The notes beneath the pieces were generated by a model that did no database searches, was not told the origin of the DNA, and worked only from the letters and a program-made list of their open reading frames with translations. 32,000 bases of DNA from Candidatus Thorarchaeota archaeon (GTDB taxonomy: Archaea; Asgardarchaeota; Heimdallarchaeia; Hodarchaeales; Hodarchaeaceae). A program made the position numbers and the translations under genes. Shown piece by piece: positions 3,709 through 29,334 of the stretch (within the stretch, counting starts at the first letter, position 1; each line of letters starts with the position of its first letter). The stretch spans positions 1 through 32,000 of the forward strand of contig JBHLRO010000028.1 of NCBI GenBank assembly GCA_048882505.1. The letters are read 5' to 3'.

Positions 3709-4653
3709 CTAAATTTTCCTTAGGTATTCTAGTCTTACTTTAGAGGCGAGAACAAGTTTTCGAACCTTTGATACAACAGCCCTCTGGGTTAAAATTTGAT
3801 AATCTTGCCGTTTGATCTCATTCAAAATCTCACCATAAACTCTTGAGGCAACTTTAACCGTGTAAGCGGCTGCAGGTGGTAAATCATCAATTCCCAGATC
3901 TGCCTGCTTATAATAGCTATTCGCTCTTTCTGATTCATATCGGATTAATCGTTTCAAATCCTCAGTGACTACGTCCTTTTCAAGATCTACCGTTGAAACA
4001 TTATACATTTTTCTAGTTTTTTCAGGCAGATAAATACGTCCTTTATTGAAATCTTCCTTAATATCACGTAGTATATTTGTCAGTTGCATGGCTTTACCAA
4101 GATCTGATGCCCTTGCCAATGTACTAGGGGCAGGGTTGTCTAGAAAGATATAGGTCATCATTAGGCCAACAGTGCTAGCGACGCGGTACATATACAGGTC
4201 TAATTCTTCATCAGTTTTGTATTCCTTCTTTATTAAGTCCATACGAACACCTTCTATTAATTCATGCATGTATTCGATCGGAATACGATGTTTACGAATT
4301 GTGTCTCCGAAGGCCTGTAAAATCGGCTCCGATGACGTGTACCCGTGAGCTAATCGTGTAATCGTTTCTTTGAGATTATCTAGTTCCGCATTAATAGCCT
4401 CATTGGATGTGCCGTCCGGCGTCTCATCTACGATGTCATCGGTCAAACGACAGAATGCATATAACGCGGCAACAGATTTACGTTGCTCTGAGGGGAGAAA
4501 CCGGGACGCGAAGTAGAAAGACTTACTGTGGATTTCCATCCACTCCAGACAATGATTATAGCTTTCTTCAAGAGATTCCTTGACAAGATTGAACCTATTA
4601 TTCCAAGTTTCTGGAATTAACCCATAGTTCGTCTGTTCATGTGTTGAATACAT
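3709..4653 (-). CDS. crtB: phytoene synthase
   Basis: HSKSFYFASRFLP, YAFCRLTDDIVDE (first Asp-rich motif), YMYRVASTVGLMM, LGKAMQLTNILRDIKED (second motif), and GRIYLP. Confidence 0.95.
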   Translation of the reverse strand: MYSTHEQTNYGLIPETWNNRFNLVKESLEESYNHCLEWMEIHSKSFYFASRFLPSEQRKSVAALYAFCRLTDDIVDETPDGTSNEAINAELDNLKETITRLAHGYTSSEPILQAFGDTIRKHRIPIEYMHELIEGVRMDLIKKEYKTDEELDLYMYRVASTVGLMMTYIFLDNPAPSTLARASDLGKAMQLTNILRDIKEDFNKGRIYLPEKTRKMYNVSTVDLEKDVVTEDLKRLIRYESERANSYYKQADLGIDDLPPAAAYTVKVASRVYGEILNEIKRQDYQILTQRAVVSKVRKLVLASKVRLEYLRKI

Positions 4654-4707
4654 CGTTTTGTCACTTACGAGAGTTTTATTTCTTGAGTAGGGCTTTTTTC
4701 CACATTA

Positions 4708-4763
4708 TTTATAAACTTCATGAAGCGATATTCATTTCATGAAATATATGAATTTTCATGTAA
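4708..4763. promoter_or_regulatory. divergent crtB/crtI promoter: palindromic TATA box plus three-fold palindromic operator array
   Basis: TTTATAAA at 4708-4715. CTTCATGAAG at 4716-4725, TTTCATGAAA at 4735-4744 and TTTCATGTAA at 4754-4763, with centres exactly 19 bp apart. Confidence 0.6.
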
Positions 4764-4784
4764 TCAGGGTCAGTAGAAAATAAA

Positions 4785-12224: not shown

Positions 12225-13172
12225 ATGAAATTTTGTCCTGCCTGTGGAATGGAAAATTTCGAGGGAAGTGTTTATTGTGGAAACTGTGGTCATAAATTTC
12301 CTGGAGAACAACAGGAAAGTAGTCCTCAGCCGATTCAAACTCCATCTCAATCTTTTCTATCAGTCGATTCGTCAAGGATATCCTATGCCAGACCTTCACC
12401 TTACATTCGACCTCCTCGTATCCAGTATATGAATTTGATAACCCACAGGAACTATCAAAATCTAATTAATGGCAGCACAGCTTTTGCACTCGGACCGATT
12501 ATATCTCTGGTCCTTGGAATAATCTTGGTCGGAGATGAAAGTAGTTTATCTACATTTGTGAATCAATTAGTCGATCTTAGCGCATTAGCTCTGTTTGCAT
12601 TTGGAATTTACTCGATATCTCAATTAGAACCAGTTTCATTAAACAGACAAGTCAAGTATGTACCGCTCTTAATAATACTCCATGCAGGGATTGGATTTAT
12701 CGGGGCTGTAATGACCGAATCCATCCTCACGATTCCCGAGGACGTATCTTTAGAGGGGCTGAGATCGTTTATTTATCAAGGAATATTGATTTCAATACTT
12801 ATGACAGGTTCAGCCTTTATTTTCCTGATAGGAGCCCATAGCTTCACTCAATGGTTTGAAGAATTCATAACCTTCTTGGGAGCTCCCCATAATGCTACGA
12901 CAAGCCGCATCAGGTGGTGTGCCATATGCGAGGTAATGGGGTCATTATTACTCGTGGCAACATATGTGATGTTTCTAAGTGGATTGGAAACCCTCTCACT
13001 ATCGACTATCCAAAATGGCCAAACAGTTTTAGTTTTAGCAACCTTAATTTTCTTTGCAGCAATTATTCTACAAGTAGCAGGGGGATATAAGGTTTTCACA
13101 CAGTTAAATAATATAAAAATGGGGAAGTATGATGGAACCTATCAAGAACATATCATCGAAAAATATAGATAG
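12225..13172 (+). CDS. zinc-ribbon domain membrane protein
   Basis: N-terminal CPACG-x8-CGNCG, Pro/Ser/Gln linker, then about 6 TM helices. Confidence 0.75.
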   Translation: MKFCPACGMENFEGSVYCGNCGHKFPGEQQESSPQPIQTPSQSFLSVDSSRISYARPSPYIRPPRIQYMNLITHRNYQNLINGSTAFALGPIISLVLGIILVGDESSLSTFVNQLVDLSALALFAFGIYSISQLEPVSLNRQVKYVPLLIILHAGIGFIGAVMTESILTIPEDVSLEGLRSFIYQGILISILMTGSAFIFLIGAHSFTQWFEEFITFLGAPHNATTSRIRWCAICEVMGSLLLVATYVMFLSGLETLSLSTIQNGQTVLVLATLIFFAAIILQVAGGYKVFTQLNNIKMGKYDGTYQEHIIEKYR

Positions 13173-13216
13173 GGTTTAATTCTGAGTCATGTTTTGGTAA
13201 AGATTCCTACGTCCTC

Positions 13217-13900
13217 TTATCTTAAATTCGTTCCGCATTTTTCGCAGAACAGCCCATCGGACCGAGTCCCACAGAGTGGACAGATGACCCATCGAGAACT
13301 CTTGGGATATGATGGAGAATCGTCAAATACGAAATCTCCGGGATCTCTCCCTGATACATGCTCGAGGGGATCATCTGAGGGGATAGAACGGTCGCGAGAA
13401 GTGACTGCCCAGATGATGGCCAATATGATACTACTGATAAGGACGCCAGTACTGTAAAACACAAAGGTAAGTTCAGTGATTCCGAACAGACCGGCAATGA
13501 ACGACTGCTGAAGGGTGATTTTCACCGTTCCGATTCTATCAGATTGAAATTCATCATACTGAAGGTAATAGTCCCCCTCTTTCTCAATTCTGACCGAGGT
13601 AAGCATGACCACTGAGAAAGTACTCTCTCCGTCAAATGAGAATGAAATGAAAATAGGAGAAACGGTACCTGACCCATCAATCGAGATGAGAATGATTTCA
13701 CCTGAACTGAATCCATATACGTGATTCTCACCTACGGCATTAATCGAATAATACCCTTCTTTCAGATGGAATGTAGGGCTAATTGAGGATTGACCAATAT
13801 CTAGCACTCCAAAGGTGGTCTGAAAGAGAAATAAGTTTAAGAATCCGAATATCATTCCAAATATACTAATACCAATCAGCAATTTTGGTAACGATCTCAT
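13217..13900 (-). CDS. membrane-anchored protein with C-terminal zinc ribbon
   Basis: N-terminal TM, beta-rich middle, second TM, C-terminal CPLCG-x7-CEKCG. Confidence 0.7.
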   Translation of the reverse strand: MRSLPKLLIGISIFGMIFGFLNLFLFQTTFGVLDIGQSSISPTFHLKEGYYSINAVGENHVYGFSSGEIILISIDGSGTVSPIFISFSFDGESTFSVVMLTSVRIEKEGDYYLQYDEFQSDRIGTVKITLQQSFIAGLFGITELTFVFYSTGVLISSIILAIIWAVTSRDRSIPSDDPLEHVSGRDPGDFVFDDSPSYPKSSRWVICPLCGTRSDGLFCEKCGTNLR

Positions 13901-14010
13901 GTCATCGCCTTTCCAAAGAAGAAAATTGAATTGATAAAGTAGATCAAGTAATAACCTATGAATTTGGCTAATAAGAATTTCGATATCCGACCACTGTAGA
14001 TTGTGAGTAG

Positions 14011-15069
14011 GTGGTAGAAATTAAAGTTACGACATTTGAAGACGTAAAAGACCTTCTAAGGATGAACATTGTTTCAGCAGCCTTAGGAACTGCCTTTGAA
14101 CTGAAGTTATTTGAGATAATCAATAACCACCCCCAAGATGCGCGAAAAATCGCGGAGACCTTTGATATACCACTAGATCGTGTTTACTGGTGGCTCGAAT
14201 TGCTAGTTGGATTAGGGCTTTTAGAACAGGACAGTGGTACTTATTCCATTTCTCCTATCACGCGATCTGCCGTTTTTGAGAGCTACAGCGCAGAAACCTG
14301 GGCGCAATTGGCCCAGTATGCACGAGAAGGGTATCGAATAGGTGATAATCTCGTATTCCACATTTCCCATCCGAAGTCGGTGTGGGCATCTCAGGGATTG
14401 AGTCCACCTGATTGGTTTAAACAAATCCAAAAGGATCCGACGCGTGCACGACGTTTTACATATCTACTTTACGAACTGCATCTTCCGTTGGCAAAAACGC
14501 TGGCCCAAACATTAGAAATGACGGGTGTGAGACAAATGATGGATTTAGGTGGGGGATCAGGGGTCATGTCGTTAATGTTACTAGAACAACATACTAGTCT
14601 CAAAGCAGTAGTCGTAGACATACCAAATGTTTGCGTTGTAGGGAGGGAAATCGCCGATAATACAATCGTAGCGAATCGTATTGAATATAGGGCACTGGAC
14701 TTCATTCATGATGAATTACCAACTGGTTTTGATCTGATACTTCAATGTGATGCGGGAATTCATACTGAAACTTTCTTTCAGAAGTTGTATAACGTGTTGA
14801 ATAAAGGGGGGCAGTTGGTAATTGTTGATTGGTGGAATCGTGGAATTACAGACTCTCAACCCGTACCTGACACTTCTCTCCAACGGAGAATGAAGCAATT
14901 TGAAAGTTCACTACAAGTTCCCAGATTGCCTATTACAACTGGAACAGAGGTGGCGACAAATATTAAAAGCCGTTTATTTCAGGTTGGATTTAGGGATATC
15001 TCATTAGACACACTAGAGGATGAAACTACAATTATTAGGTCTAAAAAACCGAGACAAGGTGTAGAATAG
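14011..15069 (+). CDS. class II O-methyltransferase (dimerisation wHTH + Methyltransf_2; ASMT/CrtF/BchU-like fold)
   Basis: LGTAFELKLFE N-terminal domain, MMDLGGGSG SAM motif, VVVDIP, LDFIHDELPTGFDLI, LNKGGQLVIVD. GTG start. Confidence 0.85.
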   Translation: MVEIKVTTFEDVKDLLRMNIVSAALGTAFELKLFEIINNHPQDARKIAETFDIPLDRVYWWLELLVGLGLLEQDSGTYSISPITRSAVFESYSAETWAQLAQYAREGYRIGDNLVFHISHPKSVWASQGLSPPDWFKQIQKDPTRARRFTYLLYELHLPLAKTLAQTLEMTGVRQMMDLGGGSGVMSLMLLEQHTSLKAVVVDIPNVCVVGREIADNTIVANRIEYRALDFIHDELPTGFDLILQCDAGIHTETFFQKLYNVLNKGGQLVIVDWWNRGITDSQPVPDTSLQRRMKQFESSLQVPRLPITTGTEVATNIKSRLFQVGFRDISLDTLEDETTIIRSKKPRQGVE

Positions 15070-15072
15070 AGC

Positions 15073-15438
15073 ATGGCGGGTATTATCTTCTTAAAAACAC
15101 AAAACCTAGAAAAAATTCGCGATTTCTACACATCAATGATTGAAGCAACTGTGTGGGTCGATCAAAAAGATTGTATCATCTTTAAGCATGATAACTTTCT
15201 GTTTGGATTTTGCGAAGGATTTAGGATAGATAAATACGGGTTGTTAACATTCTTCTATCAAACTATCGAAGAAGTAGATCGAATGTATGACAGACTGCGA
15301 AATATTACGACTACCCAACCAACAAGAAATGAGAGATACCGAATTTACCAATTCTTTGCCAAGGATCCAGAAGGCAGAGACTTAGAATTCCAAAATTTTT
15401 TGCATGAAATCGATTTTAGCTGGGATTTTTATAGCTAA
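15073..15438 (+). CDS. VOC (glyoxalase/bleomycin-resistance) family protein
   Basis: NLEKIRDFY, EEVDRMYDRL, FFAKDPEGRDLEFQ. Confidence 0.85.
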   Translation: MAGIIFLKTQNLEKIRDFYTSMIEATVWVDQKDCIIFKHDNFLFGFCEGFRIDKYGLLTFFYQTIEEVDRMYDRLRNITTTQPTRNERYRIYQFFAKDPEGRDLEFQNFLHEIDFSWDFYS

Positions 15439-15459
15439 AAAATCATAAAACATCACTAT

Positions 15460-15975
15460 TTGATGTTTCAAGGGCCAACAAGGATTTTGACCAGAGTGAA
15501 AGTAATTCAAGAACAATTAAAGAAATATGACGTCGTACAAATAGAAAATTTACTGCGAGGGAGTAAGAATCCTGTAACATTAACGTATCTATCAAAAGCA
15601 AAAAATATTCCTGTTACTGTTCCCATTTGGACTTTTTTTTATGAAAATAAGTTCTACTGTTTTGCAGGAGGTAAATCCAAGAAAGTTCAAGCAATTAGAT
15701 CAGGAAATACTGCTGTTTCCCTTCTAATTATTGATAGAAAGTTTTACCCTCATCCTGAATCCGATTTTATGCCATATCTAGGAATCATGGGAGAAGCTAG
15801 AATCTGCACCTACCTGGATAATCCCAAAACGGCATGGATCCATCAGCAGTTGCTGTTAAAATATGACCCCAATCTTTCTCAAGAATGGATAAGAGTATTA
15901 TACGATAAAGTTGAAGGTAGACCTGAGGAGGATTGGTTGATAGAAATAACTCCCACTGATTACTTCTCGTATTAG
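15460..15975 (+). CDS. pyridoxamine 5'-phosphate oxidase family (PPOX-class flavin/F420-binding) protein
   Basis: PVTVPIWTFFYENKFYCFAGGKSKKVQAIRSGNTAVSLLI, GIMGEARI, LIEITP. Confidence 0.75.
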   Translation: MMFQGPTRILTRVKVIQEQLKKYDVVQIENLLRGSKNPVTLTYLSKAKNIPVTVPIWTFFYENKFYCFAGGKSKKVQAIRSGNTAVSLLIIDRKFYPHPESDFMPYLGIMGEARICTYLDNPKTAWIHQQLLLKYDPNLSQEWIRVLYDKVEGRPEEDWLIEITPTDYFSY

Positions 15976-16032
15976 GAACTCACAAACGCGGTTCCTAGGC
16001 TTTGTTTGTATCTGGCAGGATGATGAAAGGAA

Positions 16033-16743
16033 TCAAGGGATCGATTCATCTAGTTTTACCAACCAATGATGGATGGGAGCCATCTTTTGGCAATGATTAA
16101 AACATTGGTCAACCAGCTCAACTGTTTTGAGTGTAGATACGCTGATCTGCGGAGAAATAACATAAAGACCATTGTATTTCAACAAATCAGCTCGCGGGTG
16201 AGAGGAATCAAATCCTCTTGGAACCCGCTTGTAGTGACTCCCCCCAATTTTATAGTCTCCGGCTTGGTGGACAGAATCAATGGCTTCGACTAATTCGTGT
16301 CCCGTATCATCGGAAACAACTGCTTCACGAAAAGCAGCTAGATGTTGTTTGGAAAAAGCATGCATACCCAGATATAGTCCTGCTCCAGTCATGTCCATGC
16401 CAAAAAAGATACCAGGATGTTGCATTTTCTTGCCCAGGCCTTCCCAGAAAATCACACGAAAACGGGTATTATACGGGGACTTATCCTTACTAAAACGAAT
16501 ATCTCTGTGAACTCGCATAATCGAACCACGTCCATTTGTTTGAGGATCATAGCGAAGACCAGAGGAGATCTTTTTGAGCCGCTCGCCTAAGGTAATTACA
16601 AAACTTTGCCCAGGATCAAGGAGGTACTTTTGATAGTCCGCCTTACGCGCTTGAAACCATTCTCGGCTATTATTTAATTTCAGATCAGCTAAAAACTGCA
16701 ACCCTTCTTCAGGAAACCCATCAAAGGTATTATTACTTGACAA
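16033..16743 (-). CDS. DUF2461 family protein (TIGR02453-like)
   Basis: FLADLKLNNSREWF, RVHRDIRFSKDKSPY, YKRVPRGF, DLLKY; GAGGT RBS before TTG. Confidence 0.9.
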   Translation of the reverse strand: MSSNNTFDGFPEEGLQFLADLKLNNSREWFQARKADYQKYLLDPGQSFVITLGERLKKISSGLRYDPQTNGRGSIMRVHRDIRFSKDKSPYNTRFRVIFWEGLGKKMQHPGIFFGMDMTGAGLYLGMHAFSKQHLAAFREAVVSDDTGHELVEAIDSVHQAGDYKIGGSHYKRVPRGFDSSHPRADLLKYNGLYVISPQISVSTLKTVELVDQCFNHCQKMAPIHHWLVKLDESIP

Positions 16744-17065
16744 TCGAATACCTCAAGATATCGAGTTGGTTTAATCAATAGGTTCCTATTTATATCCGAC
16801 CAACTAAGAGAGAGATCAGTGTAACGCTATATATCTACCCTTTCTTACCAGAATTTAGAGAATTCTGTCCATTATTCGAAAATCCTGGCAAATCTGACAG
16901 AAAAGGCCTTGAAATCCTTATCTAACTAATCATTTAACTAAGGACCAAGGATTAATTCATCTGTGTGAAAAGAACTCGAAAAGGGTTTAGCTACACGGGT
17001 CTTATCGTGGAAAGAAAAAAGCAATTTACGATTACATTCCATTTGGGACTTTCGAAACTGGTTTT

Positions 17066-17260
17066 CTAACGGATTTTTTCGTACTCTCGATACCTGTCAT
17101 AACGCTCCCTTTTCCGATAGTACTTTCCCAGTTTGTGTTTTGTCAGCAGATAGGATATCGATCCAGGATTCATCCCGAACAGGGCTCCTATCAGGGCATG
17201 GAAGGCGCTTCTGGTGACTTCTTTTTCCAATTCTCCCTTTTTCTTCTTCATTGGTTCCAC
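17066..17260 (-). CDS. small basic protein (copy A of the duplication)
   Basis: Intact 64-aa ORF; codon-level similarity to copy B (GELEKE...NPxSxSYLLxKHKL) suggests the frame was under selection. Confidence 0.45.
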   Translation of the reverse strand: MEPMKKKKGELEKEVTRSAFHALIGALFGMNPGSISYLLTKHKLGKYYRKRERYDRYREYEKIR

Positions 17261-17381
17261 TCTCGAGAATTGCTGCGTGAAGAGAACCTCTTCATGTCTG
17301 GCATTATCAATGATATTTCATTTAATTTGAGAGTTTTGAAACTAGTTTTCTAACGGATTTTTTCGTACTTTGGATACCTAA

Positions 17382-17530
17382 TTATCGCTCCTTCTCCCCA
17401 TAGCGCTTTCGCAGCTTATGTTTAGCAAGCAGATAGGATAATGACGCCGGATTCTTGAAAGATAGACCAAAAAACTCTCCGAAGGATGTACTAGCTAGTT
17501 CCTTCTCTAGTTCTCCTTTTTTTTCTTCAT
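17382..17530 (-). pseudogene. frameshifted paralogue (copy B) of 17066-17260
   Basis: ATG at 17530 is thrown out of frame by an A8 run. The main frame reads GELEKELASTSFGEFFGLSFKNPASLSYLLAKHKLRKRYGEKER and stops at TAA 17384-17382 after a 1-nt deletion relative to copy A. Confidence 0.55.
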
Positions 17531-17905
17531 TGGCTTTTGCTCTTGGCCTTTTTAGTTTAAGAGTTATTGGTTCTTTGTAACACTAGGCATAATCGGCGGC
17601 TTAAATATGCTGTCATTCCGGAATTACTCTTAAAATGCTTTTGATCGATCTTTTTTGTCTAGTAAGTCCTTTAAGTCTTTTCGTTTTCTCAAGTTCTTCT
17701 ACTTCCAGTTAGGCTTCCATGAATCCATCACCTAATGCCAGCTGGTTCAGCTCTGTGAATTTTTCTCCATAGTTGCCATGCTGTTGAGATGCTCATGACA
17801 TGAAAAGGTATGGAAACTCCCTGCCTAAATTTTCTGTCTGGGACCCCCGATTCTGAAAAATGTCGGGTCATCCTTAAATTCATTGAAATTACATGATGCC
17901 ATGGA

Positions 17906-20368
17906 ATGACACAGGCACTAGTTGAAAGGTTGAATGCAAGAACGATTGAAGGGGATCTGTATCGTTTAATACCTGAGAAACCTGAATTCGTTCAATGTTA
18001 TGCGTGTGCTCATTACTGTAAAATTAGGAACAATCGTTCTGGCATATGTAAAATCAGATTCAATGACAATGGGGTCCTGAGAGTTCCGTATGGCTATGTG
18101 GGCGCATGGCAGTGTGATCCGATTGAAAAAAAACCCTTTTTTCACGCGTTTCCTGGAACCCATGCCATGTCCTTTGGAATGCTGGGATGCGATTATCACT
18201 GTGGGTATTGTTTTACAGATGATACTGTTGTCATAACTGATAAAGGCCCTGAAACATTTAAACAGTTATTTAACTCTGTTGATGCTATTCAAGAAACTCA
18301 CGATGGATACATTGGTTTTAAAAACGACCTTAGAGCTATCACTTCTTCTGGTAAATTGAGAGATGTAAAGGGTATATTTAAACATAAATATAAAGGGAAG
18401 ATGGTAAAAATAAATCCCCTATATTTACCAGAAATAAAGTGTACAAGTGATCATGAAATTTATGCCACCACTAACCCTAATATTAAACCAGGAAAAGTTA
18501 AAGCGAAACAATTAACAAAAAATCACCTTCTTGCAATTCCACGAAGCTATTCTTTTTCTTCGCCCCAGCTTGTTAAAGTCGATCAAGTCCTAAATCAGCA
18601 TGAATTCAACTTCAATCCTAGGTGGAAATTATCTGTTGAAGAACGTAATTTTATCATGTCCGAAACTGAAAAAGGAAAATCATCTAATGAAATAGGAGAA
18701 ACACTAGGGAAAAGTGGTTCATATATTCGGCATGTTAGAAGCAAAATGAGGAAGGGATTAGGCTTAGATAAAAGAAAAGGAAAAATCATCATTGAAGATA
18801 ATAAAATGAGATTTTCTAACGAACGTAGACCAGGAATCCCTGTTGAAATTCAATTTGATGTTGACACTGCGAGGTTATTTGGACTTTACTGTGCGGAAGG
18901 ATGTGTTGTAACTGATGAAAGCAGACCTAATAGCTATAAAACCAATTTCACTTTTTCACATGAGGAAGAACATTTTGTAAAGGAAGTACGAAATTTAATT
19001 ACAAAAATTTTTGGCATTAGTGCAAGGAAAGTAATTAGAGAAGATACCATAGCGGTTGCGGCAGGGAAAACTTCGATTGGACTATTATTCAAATATTTAG
19101 TTGGAGTTAAAGCTCTTGAAAAGAAAGTTCCGGAGTATTTATTCGATGCTCCAAGAGAAGTGGTTGAAGCCTTTGTTAATGCATATATAGATGGTGATGG
19201 CCATAGGTACGAAAGTAGTAAGGTTTCATCTAGTACTGTTTCAATTGATCTAGCTTATGGTATTGCTTGGCTAGTTTTAAAACTAGGATATTTACCCTCC
19301 ATATATATTAATAAAATGCCAGAAAAAACAGAAATACTAGGAAGGGAAGTAAATCAAGCTGAATTTTTGTATAATGTGGTTTGGTATGAGAATTCAAATG
19401 TTGAAAGAGAATTTCATGTTACTGATGAGTATTTTTTGATACCAATTAGATCATTGAGTCAATTTGACTTTGATGATTATGTTTACAATATGGAAGTAGA
19501 GAATGAACACAATTATCTAGCAGGATTCTTTTTGGTAGCTAATTGTCAAAATTGGCTTACGTCTCAAGCTCTAAAGGATCCCCGAGCGAGCGCCAGATCG
19601 ACGGTTAATGATATCACCCCACAGGAGTTTGTAAACAAAGCCCTGGATCTTGATGCGAGAGTGGTAACATCTACGTATAATGAACCGCTGATTACGTCTG
19701 AGTGGGCTGTAGCAATCTTCAAAGTGGCACGGGAAAAGGGACTAGCGACTTCGTACGTATCTAACGGGAATGCCACCCCCGAAGTTTTAGACTATCTAAA
19801 ACCCTATTTGGATCTATATAAAATTGATCTGAAGACGTTTCAAGATAAGAACTATCGAAAGTTAGGGGGAACGTTAGAAGCGGTTCTTAAAGGGATCAAA
19901 GGTGTCTTTGAGAGAGGAATGTGGTTAGAAATAGTTACATTAATTGTCCCGTCTTTTAATGACTCTGATGAGGAACTACAACAAATCGCGGAATTCATTG
20001 CAAACATTTCCCCTGATATCCCGTGGCATGTGACCGCATTTCATAAAGATTATAAAATGACAGATCCAGACAACACTTCTGTCGAAACTTTAGTTCGTGC
20101 TGCAAAAATTGGCGAAAAGACTGGATTAAATTATGTATATGCAGGCAATTTGCCTGGTCAAGTGGGTAAGTTTTCTCATACACGATGTCCTCAATGTGAG
20201 CATACGTTAATTGCGAGACACGGTTTTGAAATCACCGACTTCGCATTAAACGTGAATTATGAAGAAAAAAAGGGATATTGTCCTAAATGTGGAGAACAAA
20301 TTCCAGGGAGATGGGAAGAACCTCCAGAAAGAAACTCACGGCTTCATTTTAGTCGATTTCTCAGTTGA
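17906..20368 (+). CDS. amrS: AmmeMemoRadiSam system radical SAM enzyme, intein-containing precursor (375 aa after splicing)
   Basis: VQCYACAHYC, DPIEKKPFFHAFPG, GCDYHCGY-[intein]-CQNW, TYNEP, YVSNG, KIDLK, WLEIVTL, PWHVTAFH, YVYAGN, and C-terminal CPQC...CPKCG. Confidence 0.93.
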   Translation: MTQALVERLNARTIEGDLYRLIPEKPEFVQCYACAHYCKIRNNRSGICKIRFNDNGVLRVPYGYVGAWQCDPIEKKPFFHAFPGTHAMSFGMLGCDYHCGYCFTDDTVVITDKGPETFKQLFNSVDAIQETHDGYIGFKNDLRAITSSGKLRDVKGIFKHKYKGKMVKINPLYLPEIKCTSDHEIYATTNPNIKPGKVKAKQLTKNHLLAIPRSYSFSSPQLVKVDQVLNQHEFNFNPRWKLSVEERNFIMSETEKGKSSNEIGETLGKSGSYIRHVRSKMRKGLGLDKRKGKIIIEDNKMRFSNERRPGIPVEIQFDVDTARLFGLYCAEGCVVTDESRPNSYKTNFTFSHEEEHFVKEVRNLITKIFGISARKVIREDTIAVAAGKTSIGLLFKYLVGVKALEKKVPEYLFDAPREVVEAFVNAYIDGDGHRYESSKVSSSTVSIDLAYGIAWLVLKLGYLPSIYINKMPEKTEILGREVNQAEFLYNVVWYENSNVEREFHVTDEYFLIPIRSLSQFDFDDYVYNMEVENEHNYLAGFFLVANCQNWLTSQALKDPRASARSTVNDITPQEFVNKALDLDARVVTSTYNEPLITSEWAVAIFKVAREKGLATSYVSNGNATPEVLDYLKPYLDLYKIDLKTFQDKNYRKLGGTLEAVLKGIKGVFERGMWLEIVTLIVPSFNDSDEELQQIAEFIANISPDIPWHVTAFHKDYKMTDPDNTSVETLVRAAKIGEKTGLNYVYAGNLPGQVGKFSHTRCPQCEHTLIARHGFEITDFALNVNYEEKKGYCPKCGEQIPGRWEEPPERNSRLHFSRFLS
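18209..19543 (+). mobile_element. intein with LAGLIDADG homing endonuclease, 445 aa
   Basis: Starts CFTDDTVV (Cys1), block B TSDH, blocks C/E LFGLYCAEG and FVNAYIDGDG, block F VYNMEVENEHNY, ends FLVAN before Cys+1. Removal restores CxxxCxxC. Spot counts suggest lower GC than the flanking exteins. Confidence 0.96.
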
Positions 20369-20400
20369 TCATTTATGGGAAGACGTAGGATTAAGGACGA

Positions 20401-21216
20401 TTATTTCAAAATTTCATTGAGAGAGGCAATTTCATTCGGGAAATTCTTCTTCAATCGGTTTTTCTTAAGATTCTCCCTAACAATAAAATTGATATCGGGG
20501 TCATTAACTCCTATCAGGTGTTTCATATAACTGAAGCCTTCTTCAGGGATTGCTTGGGTGACAACACTTAACGTATAACATAGTCCTTTTCTCAAAACCT
20601 TGAATTTTTCGGACTTACGTTTCCTTGTCTCATTGATCCTTTGGAAGATAGACTTATGCAAATTTAACGCTAATTGGGGAATATTATTATTGCCTAATGC
20701 ACTAGGATGAGCCACTGCGGCCGCGACTGCTCGCATTTCGAGCCAATTGCTATTATTAATCCAATGTTCAAGCTCATGAATCAGTAGTTGTCCTCTCTGT
20801 AATAGGATTCTGCCCAGTGCAGCCGCAACTGCCTCCCTCATTCGCCATCGCGGATCACTAGCCAATTCTCTTAATATGATGATTGATTTTTTGAAGTAAT
20901 CATCGGAAATCGCTCCTATCGAGCCAAGAGCTCGTGTCCCACAAAAAGGAATCATTTCTCTTGGATCATTTGTCGGAGCTTCCGTCGAAGACATCTTAGT
21001 CAATCCTACGCTCAGATTCCATATACCATCTAAATGATCTGTAAATTCCTCTTCAATGATATTAACGAAAGCTGATGCCATTTCAAGGTTGCCTCTACGG
21101 CCAGGGAGGTTACTATTCTGTATAAAATATTGAGTAATCGGGATATCGTCCCAGGTACTCAAAAAATCAGTGAGAAGATCTTTAAGGTCTTTTTTATGGG
21201 TATCAGTTTTTCTCAA
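20401..21216 (-). CDS. HEAT-repeat protein (DNA alkylation repair AlkC/AlkD-like superfamily)
   Basis: SNLPGRRGNLE, LASDPRWRMREAVAAAL, DPDINFIVRENLKKNRL; GAAGGT RBS before TTG. Confidence 0.7.
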   Translation of the reverse strand: MRKTDTHKKDLKDLLTDFLSTWDDIPITQYFIQNSNLPGRRGNLEMASAFVNIIEEEFTDHLDGIWNLSVGLTKMSSTEAPTNDPREMIPFCGTRALGSIGAISDDYFKKSIIILRELASDPRWRMREAVAAALGRILLQRGQLLIHELEHWINNSNWLEMRAVAAAVAHPSALGNNNIPQLALNLHKSIFQRINETRKRKSEKFKVLRKGLCYTLSVVTQAIPEEGFSYMKHLIGVNDPDINFIVRENLKKNRLKKNFPNEIASLNEILK

Positions 21217-21450
21217 GTCATTACCTTCTCAAAAAAGAGGGATCCTTAAGGTAGGCATCCATTCCTTCGGGGTGTGATAAAACCTACTGAAAGTTTGCTT
21301 TTGGGAAACAGACTTCAAACGATCCTCTAAGTTCCAAAAATCCTAGAAGAAGAAATTATAAGAGGATTTGTAAGAACAGGTGATTTTGTTGAGAATATCC
21401 TTGGGAATGCATTACAAACAGGCCATTAGAACAATAGATAGGCAATACGA

Positions 21451-22944
21451 ATGCCTGGAGGTCAGTTCATGGAAACAAAACATAGATATCAATGGTATCA
21501 AAGCATATATGACAATTTTTCCAAGATAAAAGAAGAAGCACGAAGAATAGCCGACGAACTCGGCGTAACTAAGGTCAAAGATCGTTTTGGATTATATCCT
21601 GGCGCATCTTCTTCACCAGGTCCCCTGCCAAATTATGTACTCAACGAGATAATTGAAGCTAACAAGCGAGTCATCCCCGTGCGAAAAGTAGAGGATGACC
21701 TCCGTAATGTCGTTAAGGACATTTATGGAGATGAATATGACGCAGCAGCAACAAACACTTGTGAAGCCGCTCTTCGAGTAGCGTTTGAGCTATTATTTGC
21801 TCCTCCAATATTAAGAGCAGGTGAGACATATAAAGGTAGATACATTACTCCGTATGGTGAAGATTCAGAATATATTGCAGGATATGGAAGACCTTTCCCC
21901 CCCAAATACAAAAACATATTTGTAGATAGGTCGGTAACAGGCGGAGAAGTTGCAGTAGAAGCGAAAAGCCTTCCTAACTTAGAATCAGTACTTGTGAGAT
22001 TTGTAGGGGCCAAATACGAAGTTCATGGAATAAAATACAACCCAATTCCACTATTAACCCGTACTAAAACCAGCCAAACGCTAGAACGGATTGCCAAGGT
22101 GGCAGATCGCCATAAGTTGCTTTTAACAGGATTTGCCACCTTGGGGTACGATACCCCAGGATATGGATACGCGGAAAAAGACCAAAATGGAATTTCAGTT
22201 CTAAAGAAGGGCATTGGCAAATTGGCAGAAGGTTACGATCTGCCTTACTTATTGGATGGGGGAGGTGGGATGCCTGTGATTGGACTGGGTCCTCAAGATG
22301 TGAACGGGGATATTATGATGTGGAGTATGGATAAATCAGCTCGGGCACCTGCCAGTGGTTTAGTTGTTGGTAAAGAGGAAATCATGGTTCCTATTCGAAA
22401 AGGATTAGGATTAGGGGGACAACGATATGGTGAGGTCTCATCGCATGGAAAAGCACGCTATAGTATGATGGATCCTGGTCGCGACACGGTTATAGGCTTG
22501 ATTGCTGTTTTAAAGATGCTTCGCGATAACCCAATGAAAATTAAACGCCCAATCGATGAATACCATAAAATTATCGTGAATGAATTCAAGGCCTTGGAAC
22601 CGAGCAGATTTCGTGAGAAGTTGATTATAACCAAGAGCTACACGATGGGAGGCACCGAATTAAATTATGAACAAACCTGGGATGGGGAACGCAGGGGGAT
22701 TCCACTCTTTAACATGGAGGATATGTTTGCAAACACCAATCCAATAATGGTGGCTCTCGATGAGATGGGTGTGGGCCTTGGGGCAACTATTTATAGTGGA
22801 AATATGTTTCTAACACCAGGTCTGGGAACCCTTGATGAAGAAGGAGACCTTGTGAAAGAAAGGGCGAGTTTGGCGATTCAAGCTCTTGTTAAATCGGTAG
22901 AAATAACCTGCAAATACGCGGGGTTGAACGTATCAAGGGTTTGA
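21451..22944 (+). CDS. fold-type I PLP-dependent enzyme, SelA-like
   Basis: DIMMWSMDKSARAPASGLVVGKEEIM resembles the SelA D-x3-SGDK-x3-P-x2-G-x3-G PLP-Lys motif; LLDGGGG; ATNTCEAAL. Probable start ATG 21469 (GGAGG at 21457-21461). Confidence 0.65.
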   Translation: MPGGQFMETKHRYQWYQSIYDNFSKIKEEARRIADELGVTKVKDRFGLYPGASSSPGPLPNYVLNEIIEANKRVIPVRKVEDDLRNVVKDIYGDEYDAAATNTCEAALRVAFELLFAPPILRAGETYKGRYITPYGEDSEYIAGYGRPFPPKYKNIFVDRSVTGGEVAVEAKSLPNLESVLVRFVGAKYEVHGIKYNPIPLLTRTKTSQTLERIAKVADRHKLLLTGFATLGYDTPGYGYAEKDQNGISVLKKGIGKLAEGYDLPYLLDGGGGMPVIGLGPQDVNGDIMMWSMDKSARAPASGLVVGKEEIMVPIRKGLGLGGQRYGEVSSHGKARYSMMDPGRDTVIGLIAVLKMLRDNPMKIKRPIDEYHKIIVNEFKALEPSRFREKLIITKSYTMGGTELNYEQTWDGERRGIPLFNMEDMFANTNPIMVALDEMGVGLGATIYSGNMFLTPGLGTLDEEGDLVKERASLAIQALVKSVEITCKYAGLNVSRV

Positions 22945-23178
22945 GGATCTGTTAAAACACATTCTAGCTGAAAATACTGGCCTTGACACTTGTTTAATCG
23001 TACTTAGGTTGTTTTCTACCAAACTAGTGCTCTTAAATTCACAGCCTTTAGGTTAGAGTACTTCATTCTCATTTTCGGTACCCATAAAAACGAGAAATTC
23101 AAAACAAGTTTTTTAACCAGACGGGGGAAAGATGGGAAAATTGTCCTCATAATAAGTTAGAAAAGGTGAAATCGAATT

Positions 23179-24522
23179 TTGAGAATAACTACGAAGAAAT
23201 TTTTTGTTCTGTTGTTTGTAATGTTTCTGATTACGTCTTTTGGGCATGTATCTGCGGCTCAAAATCCGTTCAGAGGTATAACCACAACAACAGATGGACA
23301 TCCCACATGGGACTCCGATATGATCAATATCGAACAAGTTGAGGAAACGGGGAAAGGTGTGTATGTTGCCGTCCTTGATACGGGTCTTGTGCCAAACTGG
23401 ATGGATTATTTTCCTGAAGAACGAATTGCAACTGAGTTCGGGATAGGATTTTATCAACCAGTGACCATTCGACCTGATGGATCGGATTTTGAAGTAGGTG
23501 AGTTACACACCACGACGTACATTGGGAGCGTGGGCTCAACTCATGGTACGCATGTTACCAGTACGATCATTGGTTATTTCTATGATGCAAATGCGGATAC
23601 ATTTGGTGGTTGGCCTTTAGATCCGCTAATTGTCAGAGGTATCGCCCCTGATGTTACCATCATTCCAGTAAAAGTCCTAGCAGATTATACTTTTCCAGGA
23701 TTGGGTGCTGGACTGGGTCAAAAGATCGTGTTTGGGACTGATAGTATGGTAGCCGCAGGTATAGACTATATCACGGACCTTAAACTCAGTGGAGCCCTTG
23801 GAGATTCCCCTGTTGTCATTTCAATGAGCCTAGGTGGCCCGTCTCTTTCACCAGTTGAGAAAAATGCTATTGATAACGCCATTGCAAATGGAGTTATTGT
23901 GGTTGCTGCCGCTGGTAACGAAGGAACAGATGGAATGAGTTTTCCAGGCGCTTATGCCCCAGTAATCTCTGCAGGTGCATCTGGTTGGACTAAGGAATGG
24001 TTGCTACCTGATGATGGCCCATTTTACCGTCTATGGTGGCTCCAAGAGAATCCATATGGTTGGAATGACATTCCAGAACCTGCTCCTGTGGATGAGGTTT
24101 ATGTTACTAATTTCAGCAGCCGAGAGTTGCCTGGACAAGAATTGGATGTGCTAGCCCCTGGGAGTTGGGTTCGTGGACCGTTTCCTGGATTTCCAGGTTA
24201 CAGCCATCTCCCATGGTGGTCGGAAGGAATAGGTGACTTTGCAGGTCTTAATCCGGGTAACTTCTACTATGTAGGTGGGACCAGTATGGCGACCCCGCAC
24301 GTATCTGCAGTGGCAGCGTTGATGCTTGAAAAAAACCCCACACTAAACCAAGCAGACATTGAATCTATCCTGAAGTCTACAGCTCTTCCCATTCCAGCTC
24401 CTGATAGTCGATCTGGTGTTTTTGTACCATTTGCCCCATTTTTTGTAACTTTCGCATGGGATACCGATGCAACTGGAGCGGGATTAATCATGGCAGACGC
24501 GGCTCTAGCTGCGATACCTTGA
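23179..24522 (+). CDS. secreted subtilisin-like serine protease (S8)
   Basis: Signal peptide; catalytic VLDTG, HGTH and GTSMATPH motifs; oxyanion AAGNEG; AAGGTGA RBS before TTG. Confidence 0.95.
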   Translation: MRITTKKFFVLLFVMFLITSFGHVSAAQNPFRGITTTTDGHPTWDSDMINIEQVEETGKGVYVAVLDTGLVPNWMDYFPEERIATEFGIGFYQPVTIRPDGSDFEVGELHTTTYIGSVGSTHGTHVTSTIIGYFYDANADTFGGWPLDPLIVRGIAPDVTIIPVKVLADYTFPGLGAGLGQKIVFGTDSMVAAGIDYITDLKLSGALGDSPVVISMSLGGPSLSPVEKNAIDNAIANGVIVVAAAGNEGTDGMSFPGAYAPVISAGASGWTKEWLLPDDGPFYRLWWLQENPYGWNDIPEPAPVDEVYVTNFSSRELPGQELDVLAPGSWVRGPFPGFPGYSHLPWWSEGIGDFAGLNPGNFYYVGGTSMATPHVSAVAALMLEKNPTLNQADIESILKSTALPIPAPDSRSGVFVPFAPFFVTFAWDTDATGAGLIMADAALAAIP

Positions 24523-24546
24523 TTAATCTACTAGAATCCCCCTTCC

Positions 24547-24563
24547 TTTTTTTCTTTTTTTTT
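24547..24563 (+). terminator. archaeal-type oligo(T) terminator after S8 gene
   Basis: T7-C-T9 tract 25 nt downstream of the stop codon. Confidence 0.6.
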
Positions 24564-24782
24564 GTCCATAGCATGCTTAAGCGGATTAAGATAACATACA
24601 TTTACACGATGGAATCAAGAGAGGAAAGCAATTCAAGAGGGAGGTTATGAATGACGATCCCAGAACTAGTTAAGTCCTTAATACTTATTTTGGTCAAGAA
24701 TGTGCATCTGCTGGCCTTGTCGTGTCCCCCCAGATATGTCTTATTTAAGTTAATGCGAGAATCTGTGGTTAAAAGAGGGAAT

Positions 24783-26084
24783 TTAAGCGTTTCTAGAGTG
24801 TGGGTACTTGATAAAGTAGAAGTTCAAACCGCCAATGAAACGAAAGATCATCACGACAATAAGCATGGCATATATTGTTTCCCATTTGCCAATAATAGTT
24901 ACCAAAAGTTCTGTAGTTATTCCCATTAATAAAGATCCAACGAATGTGGACAATCCCATGATTAGGGAAAAAACTCCGATATACTGTCCTTTAGATTCTT
25001 CTGGAGCAGAATCGATGATATGAGCGTTCATTGCTATGTAATACAGTCCAAACCCAAATCCTCCAGCCAGATTGGCGAGCGCCATTTCATACCAGTTTGT
25101 TGCAAAAAACAAGACTAGAGGAATCAAGAACATCAACCTTCGGCCCCAAAAACCAATTCTTTTTCCATATCGGTCAATAGCTGATCCACCTATCATCAAC
25201 GAGATGATCTGAAATCCCATAAAGGTTGCCCACATCAATGAGTTTTCGGAGGGCGACGCATATCGTTCCCGTATGAATCCAAAGATTGGCCAACCGAGAG
25301 ACATGCTAAAGTCCATAAATGCGCAGATAATTATAAACCGCCGAAAATCACGGTTTTCCTTTAATGGAGATAGTAGCCTTTTGATTTGATCCAGATAACT
25401 AGATTTCGAAGAAACTATTCCCGTTTTCCTATTCATGTCAGCAGATCTCCCCAAGAATAGGGAAGAAATCCCAGCAAGTAAGAACGCAATTGAAGCAATA
25501 CGAAAAATAATGGCGTATTGGGCGGCATAATCTACATTAAGCAAACCAACTCCCCAGCCCATGACAATTAATGCGAGGAATGCACACAAAACCCCTATAG
25601 TGGAGATTTTCCCTAGAAATGATCCCCGATTTTCCGAGGTCGAGATATCTCCCAAATACGCAATCCAGGCGGGGGCAAAAATGCCAAATGCGGTCGAATA
25701 AATAATCATTGCTAATAAAAATACGAAGGGATCCGTGATATCGGGAAAGATGAAACTAATAAAGGCCGAAACAAGCAACCCCACCAATAAGAATATTTTC
25801 CGCCCAGATTTGTCCGACCACCTCCCGAAGATCGATTGAGTAGCCAATTGAAGCAGATTTCGAAGACTTATCATGATTGAGATAAGGAAGGGGGAAGTCT
25901 GAATAAAAACGGCGTAAATCAGAGCATAGGTTCTATTGATCCCATCACCTAGAACTCGGCCAATTTCAACAAGGGAAATGACTGAAAATCGGCCATTGGA
26001 AGAAGGCAAGGGTAGAGAATGTTCGCTTAATGGGGGTTCCAAGTCTAAAGATCTGATTCTATCCACATCAGAGAGCCTAGTCAA
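24783..26084 (-). CDS. MFS transporter
   Basis: Motif A GRWSDKSGRK, GENRG-like STSENRGSFLG, second-half AIDRYGK, about 12 TM helices. Confidence 0.92.
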   Translation of the reverse strand: MTRLSDVDRIRSLDLEPPLSEHSLPLPSSNGRFSVISLVEIGRVLGDGINRTYALIYAVFIQTSPFLISIMISLRNLLQLATQSIFGRWSDKSGRKIFLLVGLLVSAFISFIFPDITDPFVFLLAMIIYSTAFGIFAPAWIAYLGDISTSENRGSFLGKISTIGVLCAFLALIVMGWGVGLLNVDYAAQYAIIFRIASIAFLLAGISSLFLGRSADMNRKTGIVSSKSSYLDQIKRLLSPLKENRDFRRFIIICAFMDFSMSLGWPIFGFIRERYASPSENSLMWATFMGFQIISLMIGGSAIDRYGKRIGFWGRRLMFLIPLVLFFATNWYEMALANLAGGFGFGLYYIAMNAHIIDSAPEESKGQYIGVFSLIMGLSTFVGSLLMGITTELLVTIIGKWETIYAMLIVVMIFRFIGGLNFYFIKYPHSRNA

Positions 26085-26415: not shown

Positions 26416-29328
26416 TTGGCAAGTAAAAAATTAAGGAACAGATTAAAACTTGTTTTAAAGAAGATCTTTCAATTTGAGGATATGGATCTGGATTTTGGGA
26501 TTTATCGTATCCTTAATATCAAGAAAAAGGAAATTTCCGATTTTATTGATAAGGAATTATTTGAGGTAATTGAAAAGGAATTAGGGAAATCAGAGACGGA
26601 AGAGGTAGTCGAAAGGCAGATTTGTGACCATATGATCAATTTCTTTTTACGATACTACGACAATGGCGATTTTATATCTAAACGACGATATTCTAAAACG
26701 AAGAAGTATGTAATACCCTATAACGGAGAAGAAGTTTATCTATATTGGGTAAACAATGACCAATATTATGTGAAAACAAGTGAGGATTTTAAAAATTACA
26801 GATTCATGATCGACGGCCTAACAGTTGAATTTAAACGGATCAATGACGAATTTGAAGTAAGAGGAATTAGTATTACGAATTCGGAAAAGAGATATTATAT
26901 TTTTAGGGGATTAGGATTTGAAAAATCTGTTAACACATTGGAACTGAAATTTGCCTATCGTGGATTGACAGAAAAGGAAATTGAAGCGATCAAAACTACC
27001 CTAAACAAGAATTCTATAAAAAAGGAATATGTCAACGCCTTCAACATCAAGAATGTTCTTGATCAAACCAAAACCACGGTTTTTCCCAAACTAGCCAAGA
27101 AGCACCTCAAAATGAATGGGGAGGAATCAGAGCTTTCTGAGCTCGCCTGGCATTTAAACAGATATACAACCAAAAACACTTCTGATTATTTTATTCACAA
27201 GGATTTGAGAGGTTTCTTAAATCAAGAATTGGACTTCTATATTAAGAGCGAGATATTTTCTATTACCGATTTCGAATTAGAAGCAGAAAAATCTCTTATA
27301 ACGAAAATTGTCCCCGCGTTCAAAACTATATGCCAAAAACTAATAATATTCCTGGCTCAAATAGAGGATTTTCAGAAAAGACTGTGGGAAAAGAGGAAAT
27401 TTGTCATTTCAACGAATTATTGTTTGACTTTGGATCATATTCATGAAAAGCACTACCCTGAGATTCTGGCGAATGAAGAACAACTAAGGGAATGGAGAAC
27501 GTTATTCAATATTGATTTCGAGGAAATAAAGAGAGAACGGGGATCCAAGAACATAACTGACAATGGTGGATACCGTAACATTGATTTTCTTAAGAGATTT
27601 CCAACATTAGTTCTCGATACCAGATTCTTTGATTCGGAATTTAAATATCGGATACTAAGTGAAATTAGGGAATTGGATAGCAGCATTAATGGAATATTAA
27701 TCAAGTCCAATAATTACCATGCATTAAATCTAATTCTCAACAAATACAGAGAAAAGGTAAAATGCTGCTATATTGATCCCCCGTACAACACTGGCAATGA
27801 TGAATTCCTATATAAAGATAATTATCGTCATTCCAGCTGGCTTACGATGATGTATGAGCATTTGATGTTGGGGAGGGAACTTCTTAACGATGAAGGGTCT
27901 CTTTTTGTGAGTATCGATGATAATGAAATGGACCATTTACGGTTATGTCTTGATCACGTTTTTGGTCGTGATAATTTTATCGAGCAATTGACTATTGTAT
28001 CAAATCCCAGAGGGAGATCTTTAAGAAAATACATTTCTTCGGTTCATGAGTACTGTTTGGTATGCGCAAAGAACATTGAAGCCGAATCAATCTATGGACA
28101 AGAGCCAGATAAAAAAAGGAGAGCACACTATAACGAAATTGATGAGCTGGGACAGTTTCGATGGTTAGAATTACGAAACAGAAATCCAAAATTCAATGCC
28201 AAAAATAGGCCAAACCTGTTTTTTCCTATTTATGCCAATCCTGTTACATATGAAGTATCTTTGACTGAAAAGGAAGATTGGATTAAAGTAGAACCGCTAG
28301 ATAGCAAGGGGACTGAAGATTGTTGGACTTGGGGGAAGGAAAAGGTACGTAACAATCTCAAATTTCTAAGGGCGAAGAAAACAAAGAATATGAACTGGAT
28401 TATCCAAAGAAAAGATTATTTACATAAAGAAGATGGTACAATTAAGTTGAAAAAGCCGTTTTCGGTTTGGGATGAGCGAGAGATGAATACTGAAAAGGGT
28501 ACCGAGATATTACGACATCAATTTGGCTATTTACCTTTTGATTTTCCAAAATCCCCATTTTTCATACAAAAAATTGTCGAGATATCCACTCGTTCAAATA
28601 ATCAGGAGATAATTCTAGATTACTTCGCTGGTTCAGGGACAACTGGGCAAGCCGTACTTAATCAAAATAAGAAGGATAAGGGAACACGAAAGTTTATATT
28701 GGTGGAAATGGCGCAATATTTCGAATCTATTCTATTGCCAAGAATAAAGAAGGTGATTTTCTCAGAAAATTGGTTAAATGGTGAGCCACAAGATAAAAAT
28801 GGGATTCCTAGGCAAATCCTCAAATATCAATCTTTGGAACAATACGAAGATTCATTGCTCAATATCGAGTTTGTTGAGCCAAGATCAAGTGTAAAGGAGT
28901 CTAAAGATTATAAATTAAAATATATGTTGGATTATGAAACGAGTACCAATAATATCTTCTTGAATCTTGATTTTCTAGACAATCCCTTTGGTTACAAGCT
29001 AAAAATAGAAGAGAACGGCAAAACAAGGGAGGTTAACGCGGATCTCGTTGAAACATTCAACTATCTTGCAGGAATCGATGTTAATTTCATTTATTTAAAA
29101 AATGATGCCGAAATTAGGTATATTTTTATAAAAGGACAACAAGGAGAAAAGTCAGTATTTGTGGTCTGGAGGAACAAGCCTGAATCCTTCAATCCTGAGC
29201 GTGATAAAGAATTTGTTGAACGAGAGATCGCTAATGACAAATACGATGAAGTGTTTGTCAATGGTAACTCTCTCATCAGAAATGCCAAACCAATCGATGT
29301 TGTTTTTAAGGAAGAACTGTTCAGGTGA
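26416..29328 (+). CDS. mod: type III restriction-modification DNA adenine methyltransferase (Mod, beta class)
   Basis: LDFGIYRI N-terminus, YWVNNDQYYVKT, YIDPPYNTG (motif IV), LDYFAGSGTTGQA (motif I), LEQYEDSL. Confidence 0.92.
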   Translation: MASKKLRNRLKLVLKKIFQFEDMDLDFGIYRILNIKKKEISDFIDKELFEVIEKELGKSETEEVVERQICDHMINFFLRYYDNGDFISKRRYSKTKKYVIPYNGEEVYLYWVNNDQYYVKTSEDFKNYRFMIDGLTVEFKRINDEFEVRGISITNSEKRYYIFRGLGFEKSVNTLELKFAYRGLTEKEIEAIKTTLNKNSIKKEYVNAFNIKNVLDQTKTTVFPKLAKKHLKMNGEESELSELAWHLNRYTTKNTSDYFIHKDLRGFLNQELDFYIKSEIFSITDFELEAEKSLITKIVPAFKTICQKLIIFLAQIEDFQKRLWEKRKFVISTNYCLTLDHIHEKHYPEILANEEQLREWRTLFNIDFEEIKRERGSKNITDNGGYRNIDFLKRFPTLVLDTRFFDSEFKYRILSEIRELDSSINGILIKSNNYHALNLILNKYREKVKCCYIDPPYNTGNDEFLYKDNYRHSSWLTMMYEHLMLGRELLNDEGSLFVSIDDNEMDHLRLCLDHVFGRDNFIEQLTIVSNPRGRSLRKYISSVHEYCLVCAKNIEAESIYGQEPDKKRRAHYNEIDELGQFRWLELRNRNPKFNAKNRPNLFFPIYANPVTYEVSLTEKEDWIKVEPLDSKGTEDCWTWGKEKVRNNLKFLRAKKTKNMNWIIQRKDYLHKEDGTIKLKKPFSVWDEREMNTEKGTEILRHQFGYLPFDFPKSPFFIQKIVEISTRSNNQEIILDYFAGSGTTGQAVLNQNKKDKGTRKFILVEMAQYFESILLPRIKKVIFSENWLNGEPQDKNGIPRQILKYQSLEQYEDSLLNIEFVEPRSSVKESKDYKLKYMLDYETSTNNIFLNLDFLDNPFGYKLKIEENGKTREVNADLVETFNYLAGIDVNFIYLKNDAEIRYIFIKGQQGEKSVFVVWRNKPESFNPERDKEFVEREIANDKYDEVFVNGNSLIRNAKPIDVVFKEELFR

Positions 29329-29334
29329 GAATAA

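Follow-up and report, generated by a model that had tools for sequence, protein, structure and literature searches.

Splicing of the intein in MoaA of Pyrococcus abyssi, an oxygen-labile radical S-adenosylmethionine (SAM) enzyme, is controlled by a native disulfide between the cysteine at position -3 (Cys-3) and the first intein residue (Cys1), according to two reviews. NCBIfam also has two 'exception' models for radical SAM proteins that contain an intein, NF045703 for the tetraether lipid synthase Tes and NF038136 for the Rv2578c family. The element described here is a class 1 intein in an AmmeMemoRadiSam-type radical SAM gene of an Asgard archaeon (Candidatus Thorarchaeota archaeon, GenBank assembly GCA_048882505.1, hereafter genome G000). 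It lies in the first 32,000 nucleotides of contig JBHLRO010000028.1, the whole stretch that was analysed, called the window below. The initial annotation of this stretch had read the locus as a potential redox-trap splice switch, on the precedent of the P. abyssi MoaA disulfide; the precedent itself is given in both reviews. The present analysis favours, with a probability of about 70%, a mobile homing intein that is lodged where inteins recur in radical SAM genes and that splices constitutively without evolved regulation.

The insert interrupts the CxxxCxxC motif of the enzyme directly before its third cysteine, and the frame is open over all 820 codons of the precursor. The parts of the gene are these:

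17906–20368, + strand: precursor open reading frame (ORF) of the radical SAM enzyme split by the intein, 820 aa plus stop; TIGR04337 matches it in two stretches, either side of the insert.
17906–18208, + strand: N-extein, 101 aa, with last residues C95-D-Y-H-C99-G-Y101 (motif at 18188–18208).
Within 17906–18208, + strand: N-terminal Cys cluster of the N-extein, CYACAHYC...GIC.
18209–19543, + strand: class 1 intein of 445 aa, with Cys1 (TGT, 18209–18211) as first and Asn445 (AAT, 19541–19543) as last residue.
18440–18454, + strand: intein block B, C78-T79-S80-D81-H82 (TxxH), read from the sequence, with T79-S-D-H82 at 18443–18454.
18626–18721, + strand: helix-turn-helix insert, intein residues 140–171, a weak match to PF13936 (HTH_38).
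18875–18901, + strand: LAGLIDADG motif 1, L-F-G-L-Y-C-A-E230-G (PF14528).
19172–19201, + strand: LAGLIDADG motif 2, F-V-N-A-Y-I-D-G-D330-G.
19481–19543, + strand: intein blocks F and G, VYNMEVENEHNYLAGFFLVAN, ending in Asn445 (TIGR01443 match).
19544–19546, + strand: Cys+1 (Cys547), the predicted splice nucleophile and third cysteine of CxxxCxxC; empty alleles read C..HC.Y/CQNW.
19544–20368, + strand: C-extein, 274 aa plus stop, with the remaining radical SAM core (PF04055, 61.3 bits) and a C-terminal CxxC...CxxC.

Across the insert the precursor reads ...MLG-C95-D-Y-H-C99-G-Y101 / C102-F-T-D-D-T...F-L-V-A-N546 / C547-Q-N-W-L-T-S-Q..., with slashes at the junctions; in this numbering Cys1 of the intein is Cys102, its last residue is Asn546 and the +1 nucleophile is Cys547. 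The translation agrees with the junction given in the initial annotation, C-D-Y-H-C-G-Y / intein / C-Q-N-W, and with its placing of the second cluster ligand at -3 of Cys1 (Cys99 versus Cys102). The span reported there, 18188–19546, is correct for the motif, the intein and Cys+1 together, the intein alone being the narrower interval listed above. Once residues 102–546 are taken out, the predicted mature protein has 375 aa, contains CDYHCGYC and carries the spliced-junction peptide ...GCDYHCGYCQNWLTSQ.... The precursor itself keeps a C95-x3-C99-x2-C102 string, in which Cys1 of the intein occupies the third position. It had been stated that the enzyme cannot form its cluster until splicing occurs; this is right in that Cys+1 is the third ligand, and it goes further than the sequence in the rest, given that string in the precursor.

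An exact empty allele is found in G016, a genome of the same genus as G000, whose contig C14 is syntenic with positions 13000–25000 of the window at 75–85% nucleotide identity. The G016 contig is without exactly these 1,335 nt, the matches to N-extein and C-extein abut, and the 375-aa orthologue reads CDYHCGY/CQNWLTSQ, which is the predicted spliced junction exactly. Its identity to the window protein is 76% over the N-extein (its residues 1–102) and 80% over the C-extein. Because this syntenic contig lacks exactly the 1,335 nt, and because all 150 homologous inserts that were examined begin with Cys and end in Asn followed by Cys, the insert is not a product of chance. The alignment with intein-less orthologues that the initial annotation had proposed comes out clearly: the empty alleles, in G016 and in dozens of bacterial orthologues, read through at the exact junction and identify Cys+1 with the third cysteine of CxxxCxxC.

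In public bacterial genomes the insert is common at this site, as a wider search, also proposed by the initial annotation, makes plain. In a collection of 5.8 billion proteins the precursor has 1,062 matches in the length class 451–1435 aa. The best 120 of them are proteins of about 800 aa, 51–66% identical to the precursor, and 119 show the junction C..HC.[YF]/CF...; the named hosts among these 120 are mostly Chloroflexota (Anaerolineae) and Acidobacteriota (Blastocatellia). A survey of alleles, restricted to the best 80 loci from contigs with one genome per species, found mini-inteins and empty alleles beside full-length inteins, the full-length ones in Anaerolineae, Blastocatellia, Planctomycetota, Bipolaricaulota, Omnitrophota and Rokubacteriota. 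The 150 inserts comprise 142 full-length inteins (425–474 aa) and 8 mini-inteins (154–248 aa), and near-identical exteins occur in all three states, with an insert of 451 aa (L026), of 154 aa (L040) or of 0 aa (L071). This coexistence of full, mini and empty states is the pattern of the classical homing cycle, in which an intein invades, its endonuclease decays and the element is lost. The anatomy of the insert, its exact empty allele and its distribution across the family are direct observations.

The suggestion that this insertion is undescribed in the AmmeMemoRadiSam family holds for the literature, where searches pairing intein with each of radical SAM, CxxxCxxC, tetraether and PflA, or using AmmeMemoRadiSam by itself, brought up no paper on an intein at this site; it does not hold for public databases, where more than 1,000 proteins match and nearly all of the best 120 carry the junction. 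New is the Asgard archaeal host. The window's intein is the sole one that two intein models detect in G000. No close copy was found in the 60 class-level relatives searched (20 of the same genus, own genome excepted), nor a related intein in the 20 same-genus genomes. Inteins 34–35% identical to it occupy the same site of other radical SAM paralogues in four of 300 sampled Asgard genomes. The window-type paralogue is itself patchy, being present in 6 of the 41 class-level genomes searched (own genome included), with the intein in the window copy only, and a single gain after the split from G016 is more parsimonious than at least three exact losses.

The enzyme is identified by TIGR04337 (AmmeMemoRadiSam system radical SAM enzyme; cut-off 220 bits), which scores 255.7 bits with the precursor and 259.2 bits, in one stretch, with the G016 orthologue. 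The AMMECR1 and Memo partners are neither adjacent nor fused to it: G000 has one AMMECR1 on contig C11 and one Memo on C4, and a partner gene lies near the locus in 3 of about 85 loci of the window subfamily (fetched flanks of up to 6 kb per side). Because the partners are on other contigs, and rarely adjacent in the subfamily, membership of the 'system' is assigned from the hidden Markov model score alone. We propose that the 820-aa ORF be annotated as an AmmeMemoRadiSam-type radical SAM enzyme that contains an intein and is 375 aa long when mature. G000 also encodes a second TIGR04337 paralogue without an intein (L001, G000:C30:11325-12494, motif GCNMRCLHCQNHSIS, 353.8 bits), and paralogues of this type are present in nearly all related genomes.

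The insert has the domains of a splicing and homing element. On the precursor, PF14890 (Intein_splicing) scores 44–46.4 bits (cut-off 35.8), the N-terminal intein model TIGR01445 33.5–37.4 bits (cut-off 24.5), the C-terminal model TIGR01443 16.4 bits (cut-off 15.6) and PF14528 (LAGLIDADG_3) 43.9–45.8 bits (cut-off 22.5). The PF13936 match is weak (E 0.0018–0.0035, below cut-off); several homologues have a precomputed match to this Pfam family too, and the helix-turn-helix insert is probably a DNA-recognition region. Both LAGLIDADG motifs have their acidic catalytic residue, E230 in LFGLYCAE230G and D330 in YIDGD330G. Among 135 homologous inteins, 96 columns are at least 95% conserved, and the window intein retains 90 of these, every catalytic position included. 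C78, T79 and H82 of block B are conserved at this level in the family; the conserved positions are G225, Y227, C228, A229, E230 and G231 in LAGLIDADG motif 1, A325, G329, D330 and G331 in motif 2, and V425, N427, E429, V430, H434 and N445 in blocks F and G.

The C-terminal junction, Asn546 followed by the nucleophile Cys547, is that required of a class 1 intein. Two residues nearby are unusual. Asn427 sits where block F usually has Asp, and the penultimate residue is Ala in place of the common, non-obligatory His. The latter is a trait of the intein family: of the 150 homologous inserts, 126 have Ser there, 10 Lys, 7 His, 6 Ala and 1 Asn. The Ser or Ala at this position and the Asn427, both common in the lineage, suggest a slightly non-canonical splicing chemistry.

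The third-cysteine position is not peculiar to this enzyme. An exhaustive HMMER search with the intein only returned 4,804 representative clusters at E <= 0.001; among the best 150 of these, 44 have a resolvable N-junction, and in 42 of the 44 the intein begins directly after the C-x3-C-x2 of a radical SAM motif. Hosts at this site comprise the window's GCD.HC subfamily, canonical TIGR04337 proteins (GCNxxCxx/C...N/CQNxxIS), an HpnJ-like B12-radical SAM protein and unclassified radical SAM proteins. The NF045703 model has its intein at the same motif position: residues 95–613 of the window protein are colinear with its positions 149–672 and four other proteins begin at positions 144–149, and because all five align from the cysteine motif, the start of its intein falls right after C-x3-C-x2. 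On these alignments, the third-cysteine position is a recurrent, superfamily-wide intein target in radical SAM enzymes.

One metagenome representative goes further. P0154 (946 aa, with the fragment P0177; TIGR04337, 293 bits) has two inteins within one CxxxCxxC, in the layout TTGCNWL/C(mini-intein, about 172 aa)...VVHN/CRY/C(second intein)...N/CQNFDIS. Because the two inteins split a single motif, the second and third cluster cysteines of this protein would both be +1 splice nucleophiles.

These features suggest how the element may persist and act. It is best explained as a mobile class 1 intein with a LAGLIDADG homing endonuclease, inserted directly before the third CxxxCxxC [4Fe-4S] cysteine of a PflA-like AmmeMemoRadiSam-type gene. 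The third-cysteine site is probably favoured because few stretches of the superfamily are better conserved in DNA and protein; such a site would give the endonuclease a stable target and splicing a ready Cys+1 nucleophile, and at the cluster site an imprecise loss would kill the enzyme. After translation, Cys102 (Cys1) would begin an N-S acyl shift, and attack by Cys547 (+1) followed by cyclisation of Asn546 would join the exteins into the 375-aa enzyme with CDYHCGYC restored. The Cys(-3)-x-x-Cys1 pair is a by-product of the site, which may render splicing oxidation-sensitive in vitro, as in P. abyssi MoaA. In the cell, constitutive splicing in a reducing cytoplasm would be the most likely state.

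G000 (4.3 Mb, 94.6% complete) has an archaeal small-subunit ribosomal RNA and a 440-bit actin match. In the extein tree six Asgard sequences branch outside a bacterial clade, with a support of 83 in the Shimodaira–Hasegawa-like approximate likelihood ratio test (SH-aLRT); this placing excludes a recent bacterial origin of the host gene, as does the synteny with the same-genus contig. In a quick intein tree, the window intein falls inside a Chloroflexota/Acidobacteriota clade (SH-aLRT 98) on a terminal branch of 0.63, and a placement outside all bacterial copies is not rejected by the approximately unbiased test (p = 0.121). Its identity to the bacterial copies averages 49% and reaches 52%, the median among the bacterial copies themselves being 57%. 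In the 31 bacterial loci scored, intein GC follows the GC of the intein's own host and is below that of the host gene, except in the mini-intein loci L039 and L040. The GC content at third codon positions (GC3) of the window intein is 21.6% versus 38–94% in the bacterial copies, and because of this difference the intein appears to be a long resident of low-GC genomes. The host-adapted GC3 also excludes an assembly chimera or a recent import from the sampled bacteria.

In the redox switch proposed earlier, an oxidised Cys99-Cys102 disulfide would block the N-S acyl shift, and an O2-labile enzyme would mature in a reducing cytoplasm only. The C-G-Y-C geometry is indeed present at the N-junction, according to the reviews an engineered Ssp DnaE intein is controlled by a Cys-3/Cys1 disulfide just as that of P. 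abyssi MoaA is, Cys1 is invariant in the 150 inserts, and the composition of the intein suggests a long stay in low-GC hosts. However, any intein with Cys1 that is placed before the third CxxxCxxC cysteine yields C-x-x-C, and the geometry therefore loses its value as a sign of an evolved switch. Nor is the conservation of the two residues independent evidence, because Cys-3 is retained for its role in binding the cluster and Cys1 is the catalytic nucleophile of a single homologous intein lineage. The same-genus orthologue and the other class-level genomes searched lack the intein, and full, mini and empty alleles stand side by side in close relatives, which indicates that hosts fare well without it; this is how mobile homing elements are distributed, and it does not bear out oxidation-gated maturation. 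An adaptive redox trap is on these grounds unlikely. It is likewise unlikely that splicing is gated more generally by cellular thiol or iron-sulfur status, with the Cys1 thiol either locked in the Cys99-Cys102 disulfide or held by a metal or cluster. Cys547 must be near Cys1 in the folded intein, and it is possible that Cys547 and Cys78, beside block B, are further disulfide partners. If such gating were real, the third-cysteine inteins (of MoaA, Tes, QueE, PflA-like enzymes and others) would together serve oxygen-labile enzymes as a common checkpoint of maturation and would be more than selfish DNA.

A purely metal-dependent control, in which C95, C99 and C102 bind a cluster or Zn/Fe via the catalytic thiol and thereby delay splicing or tie it to the Fe-S supply, is very improbable. 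Divalent metals can inhibit inteins, and a CxxxCxxC is present in both precursor and product; but this is an argument from geometry only. In the precursor 445 residues displace the helix that in PflA-like folds comes after the third Cys, and the distribution speaks against metal control as it does against the redox trap. We give the least credence to a dead insert, that is, an intein that no longer splices within a functionless paralogue. In its favour are the non-His penultimate residue, the Asn in block F, the long terminal branch of the intein and the intact intein-free paralogue on C30. Yet the frame is open, the catalytic positions are retained with nearly all of the conserved columns, the unusual residues are the norm of the family in many genomes with the gene, and the exteins keep their high identity to the G016 orthologue.

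A constitutively splicing homing intein has points against it as well. The published case of P. abyssi MoaA is a precedent for the gating of splicing by a Cys-3/Cys1 pair, and the host-adapted composition of the intein, which points to long residence, would also fit an element that is kept because it is useful. The penultimate Ala and Asn427 make the chemistry not fully canonical, though they are conserved family-wide. Splicing competence, endonuclease activity and the absence of regulation are all inferred.

The surroundings of the gene add some observations of their own. Upstream of it the window has about 1.6 kb more DNA (15982–17884) than G016, where the interval is about 290 nt; the extra DNA holds a DUF2461 gene (16033–16743, minus strand) and a 1.1-kb stretch without a long ORF. 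A tandem duplication of about 283 nt (75–95% identity) lies upstream of the gene at 17031–17254 and 17315–17533; its first copy holds a 64-aa basic ORF (17066–17260, minus strand), and its second has no matching ORF of at least 35 aa. The photo-oxidative locus that had been cited in favour of the redox switch is real as a carotenoid cluster at 2715–6383, with a B12-binding-domain protein (2715–3665, minus strand), a phytoene synthase (3709–4653, minus strand) and a phytoene-desaturase-like flavoprotein (4785–6383, plus strand); it is 12–15 kb away and has no detectable link to the radical SAM gene. At 26416–31779 an 814-aa ResIII/SNF2-type helicase comes after a 970-aa N6/N4 DNA methylase; the two are probably a type III-like restriction-modification or related defence pair. 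Rfam and tRNA scans gave no RNA genes in the window.

The filled allele of G000 and the empty allele of G016 form a clean natural pair for a test of splicing and its redox dependence, and nature offers no better candidates for conditional protein splicing than inteins at the catalytic cysteines of oxygen-labile enzymes. P. abyssi MoaA is one of the closest known cases. Both inteins sit in radical SAM enzymes, the P. abyssi host being oxygen-labile, and both have a C-x-x-C over the N-junction (C99-G-Y-C102 in the window); MoaA, however, is a GTP 3',8-cyclase and the window enzyme is of the PflA-like AmmeMemoRadiSam type, and a shared position in CxxxCxxC could not be confirmed. A search for longer, intein-bearing relatives of the genome's own MoaA gave only eukaryotic MOCS1 fusions among the 120 matches listed. 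The MoaA of G000 (L110, C1:118223-119206) aligns from end to end with the MoaA portion of eukaryotic MOCS1 proteins at 39–45% identity.

Among solved structures, the closest relative of the exteins is E. coli PflA (PDB 3c8f/3cb8, 8fo0; E 3e-8 with the G016 orthologue as query), which has the same CxxxCxxC cluster loop where the radical SAM core begins; it is a distant relative, and the window enzyme has additional N- and C-terminal Cys motifs. The nearest solved LAGLIDADG domains are those of PI-PkoII, the DNA polymerase intein 2 of Thermococcus kodakarensis (2cw7, E 6e-19), and of the archaeal VMA inteins (7qss, E 1e-11), which match intein residues 214–365 only and come from other host proteins and other insertion sites. 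NF045703 and NF038136 are likewise curated inteins inside radical SAM enzymes. Their host families are different ones, and the window protein scores 48 bits against a cut-off of 1700, the resemblance being in the intein and the motif and not in the enzyme. Further close counterparts are the bacterial copies (P0002–P0120; L006–L040; Anaerolineae, Blastocatellia, Planctomycetota, Bipolaricaulota and Omnitrophota), which belong to the same subfamily, GCD[YFL]HC.Y/C...N/CQNW, and carry at the same site an intein colinear over 445 aa, with the HINT, helix-turn-helix and LAGLIDADG layout and the penultimate Ser or Ala, as in the window. The window intein differs from them in its sequence and GC3, and it resides in an Asgard archaeon whose exteins branch outside the bacterial clade.

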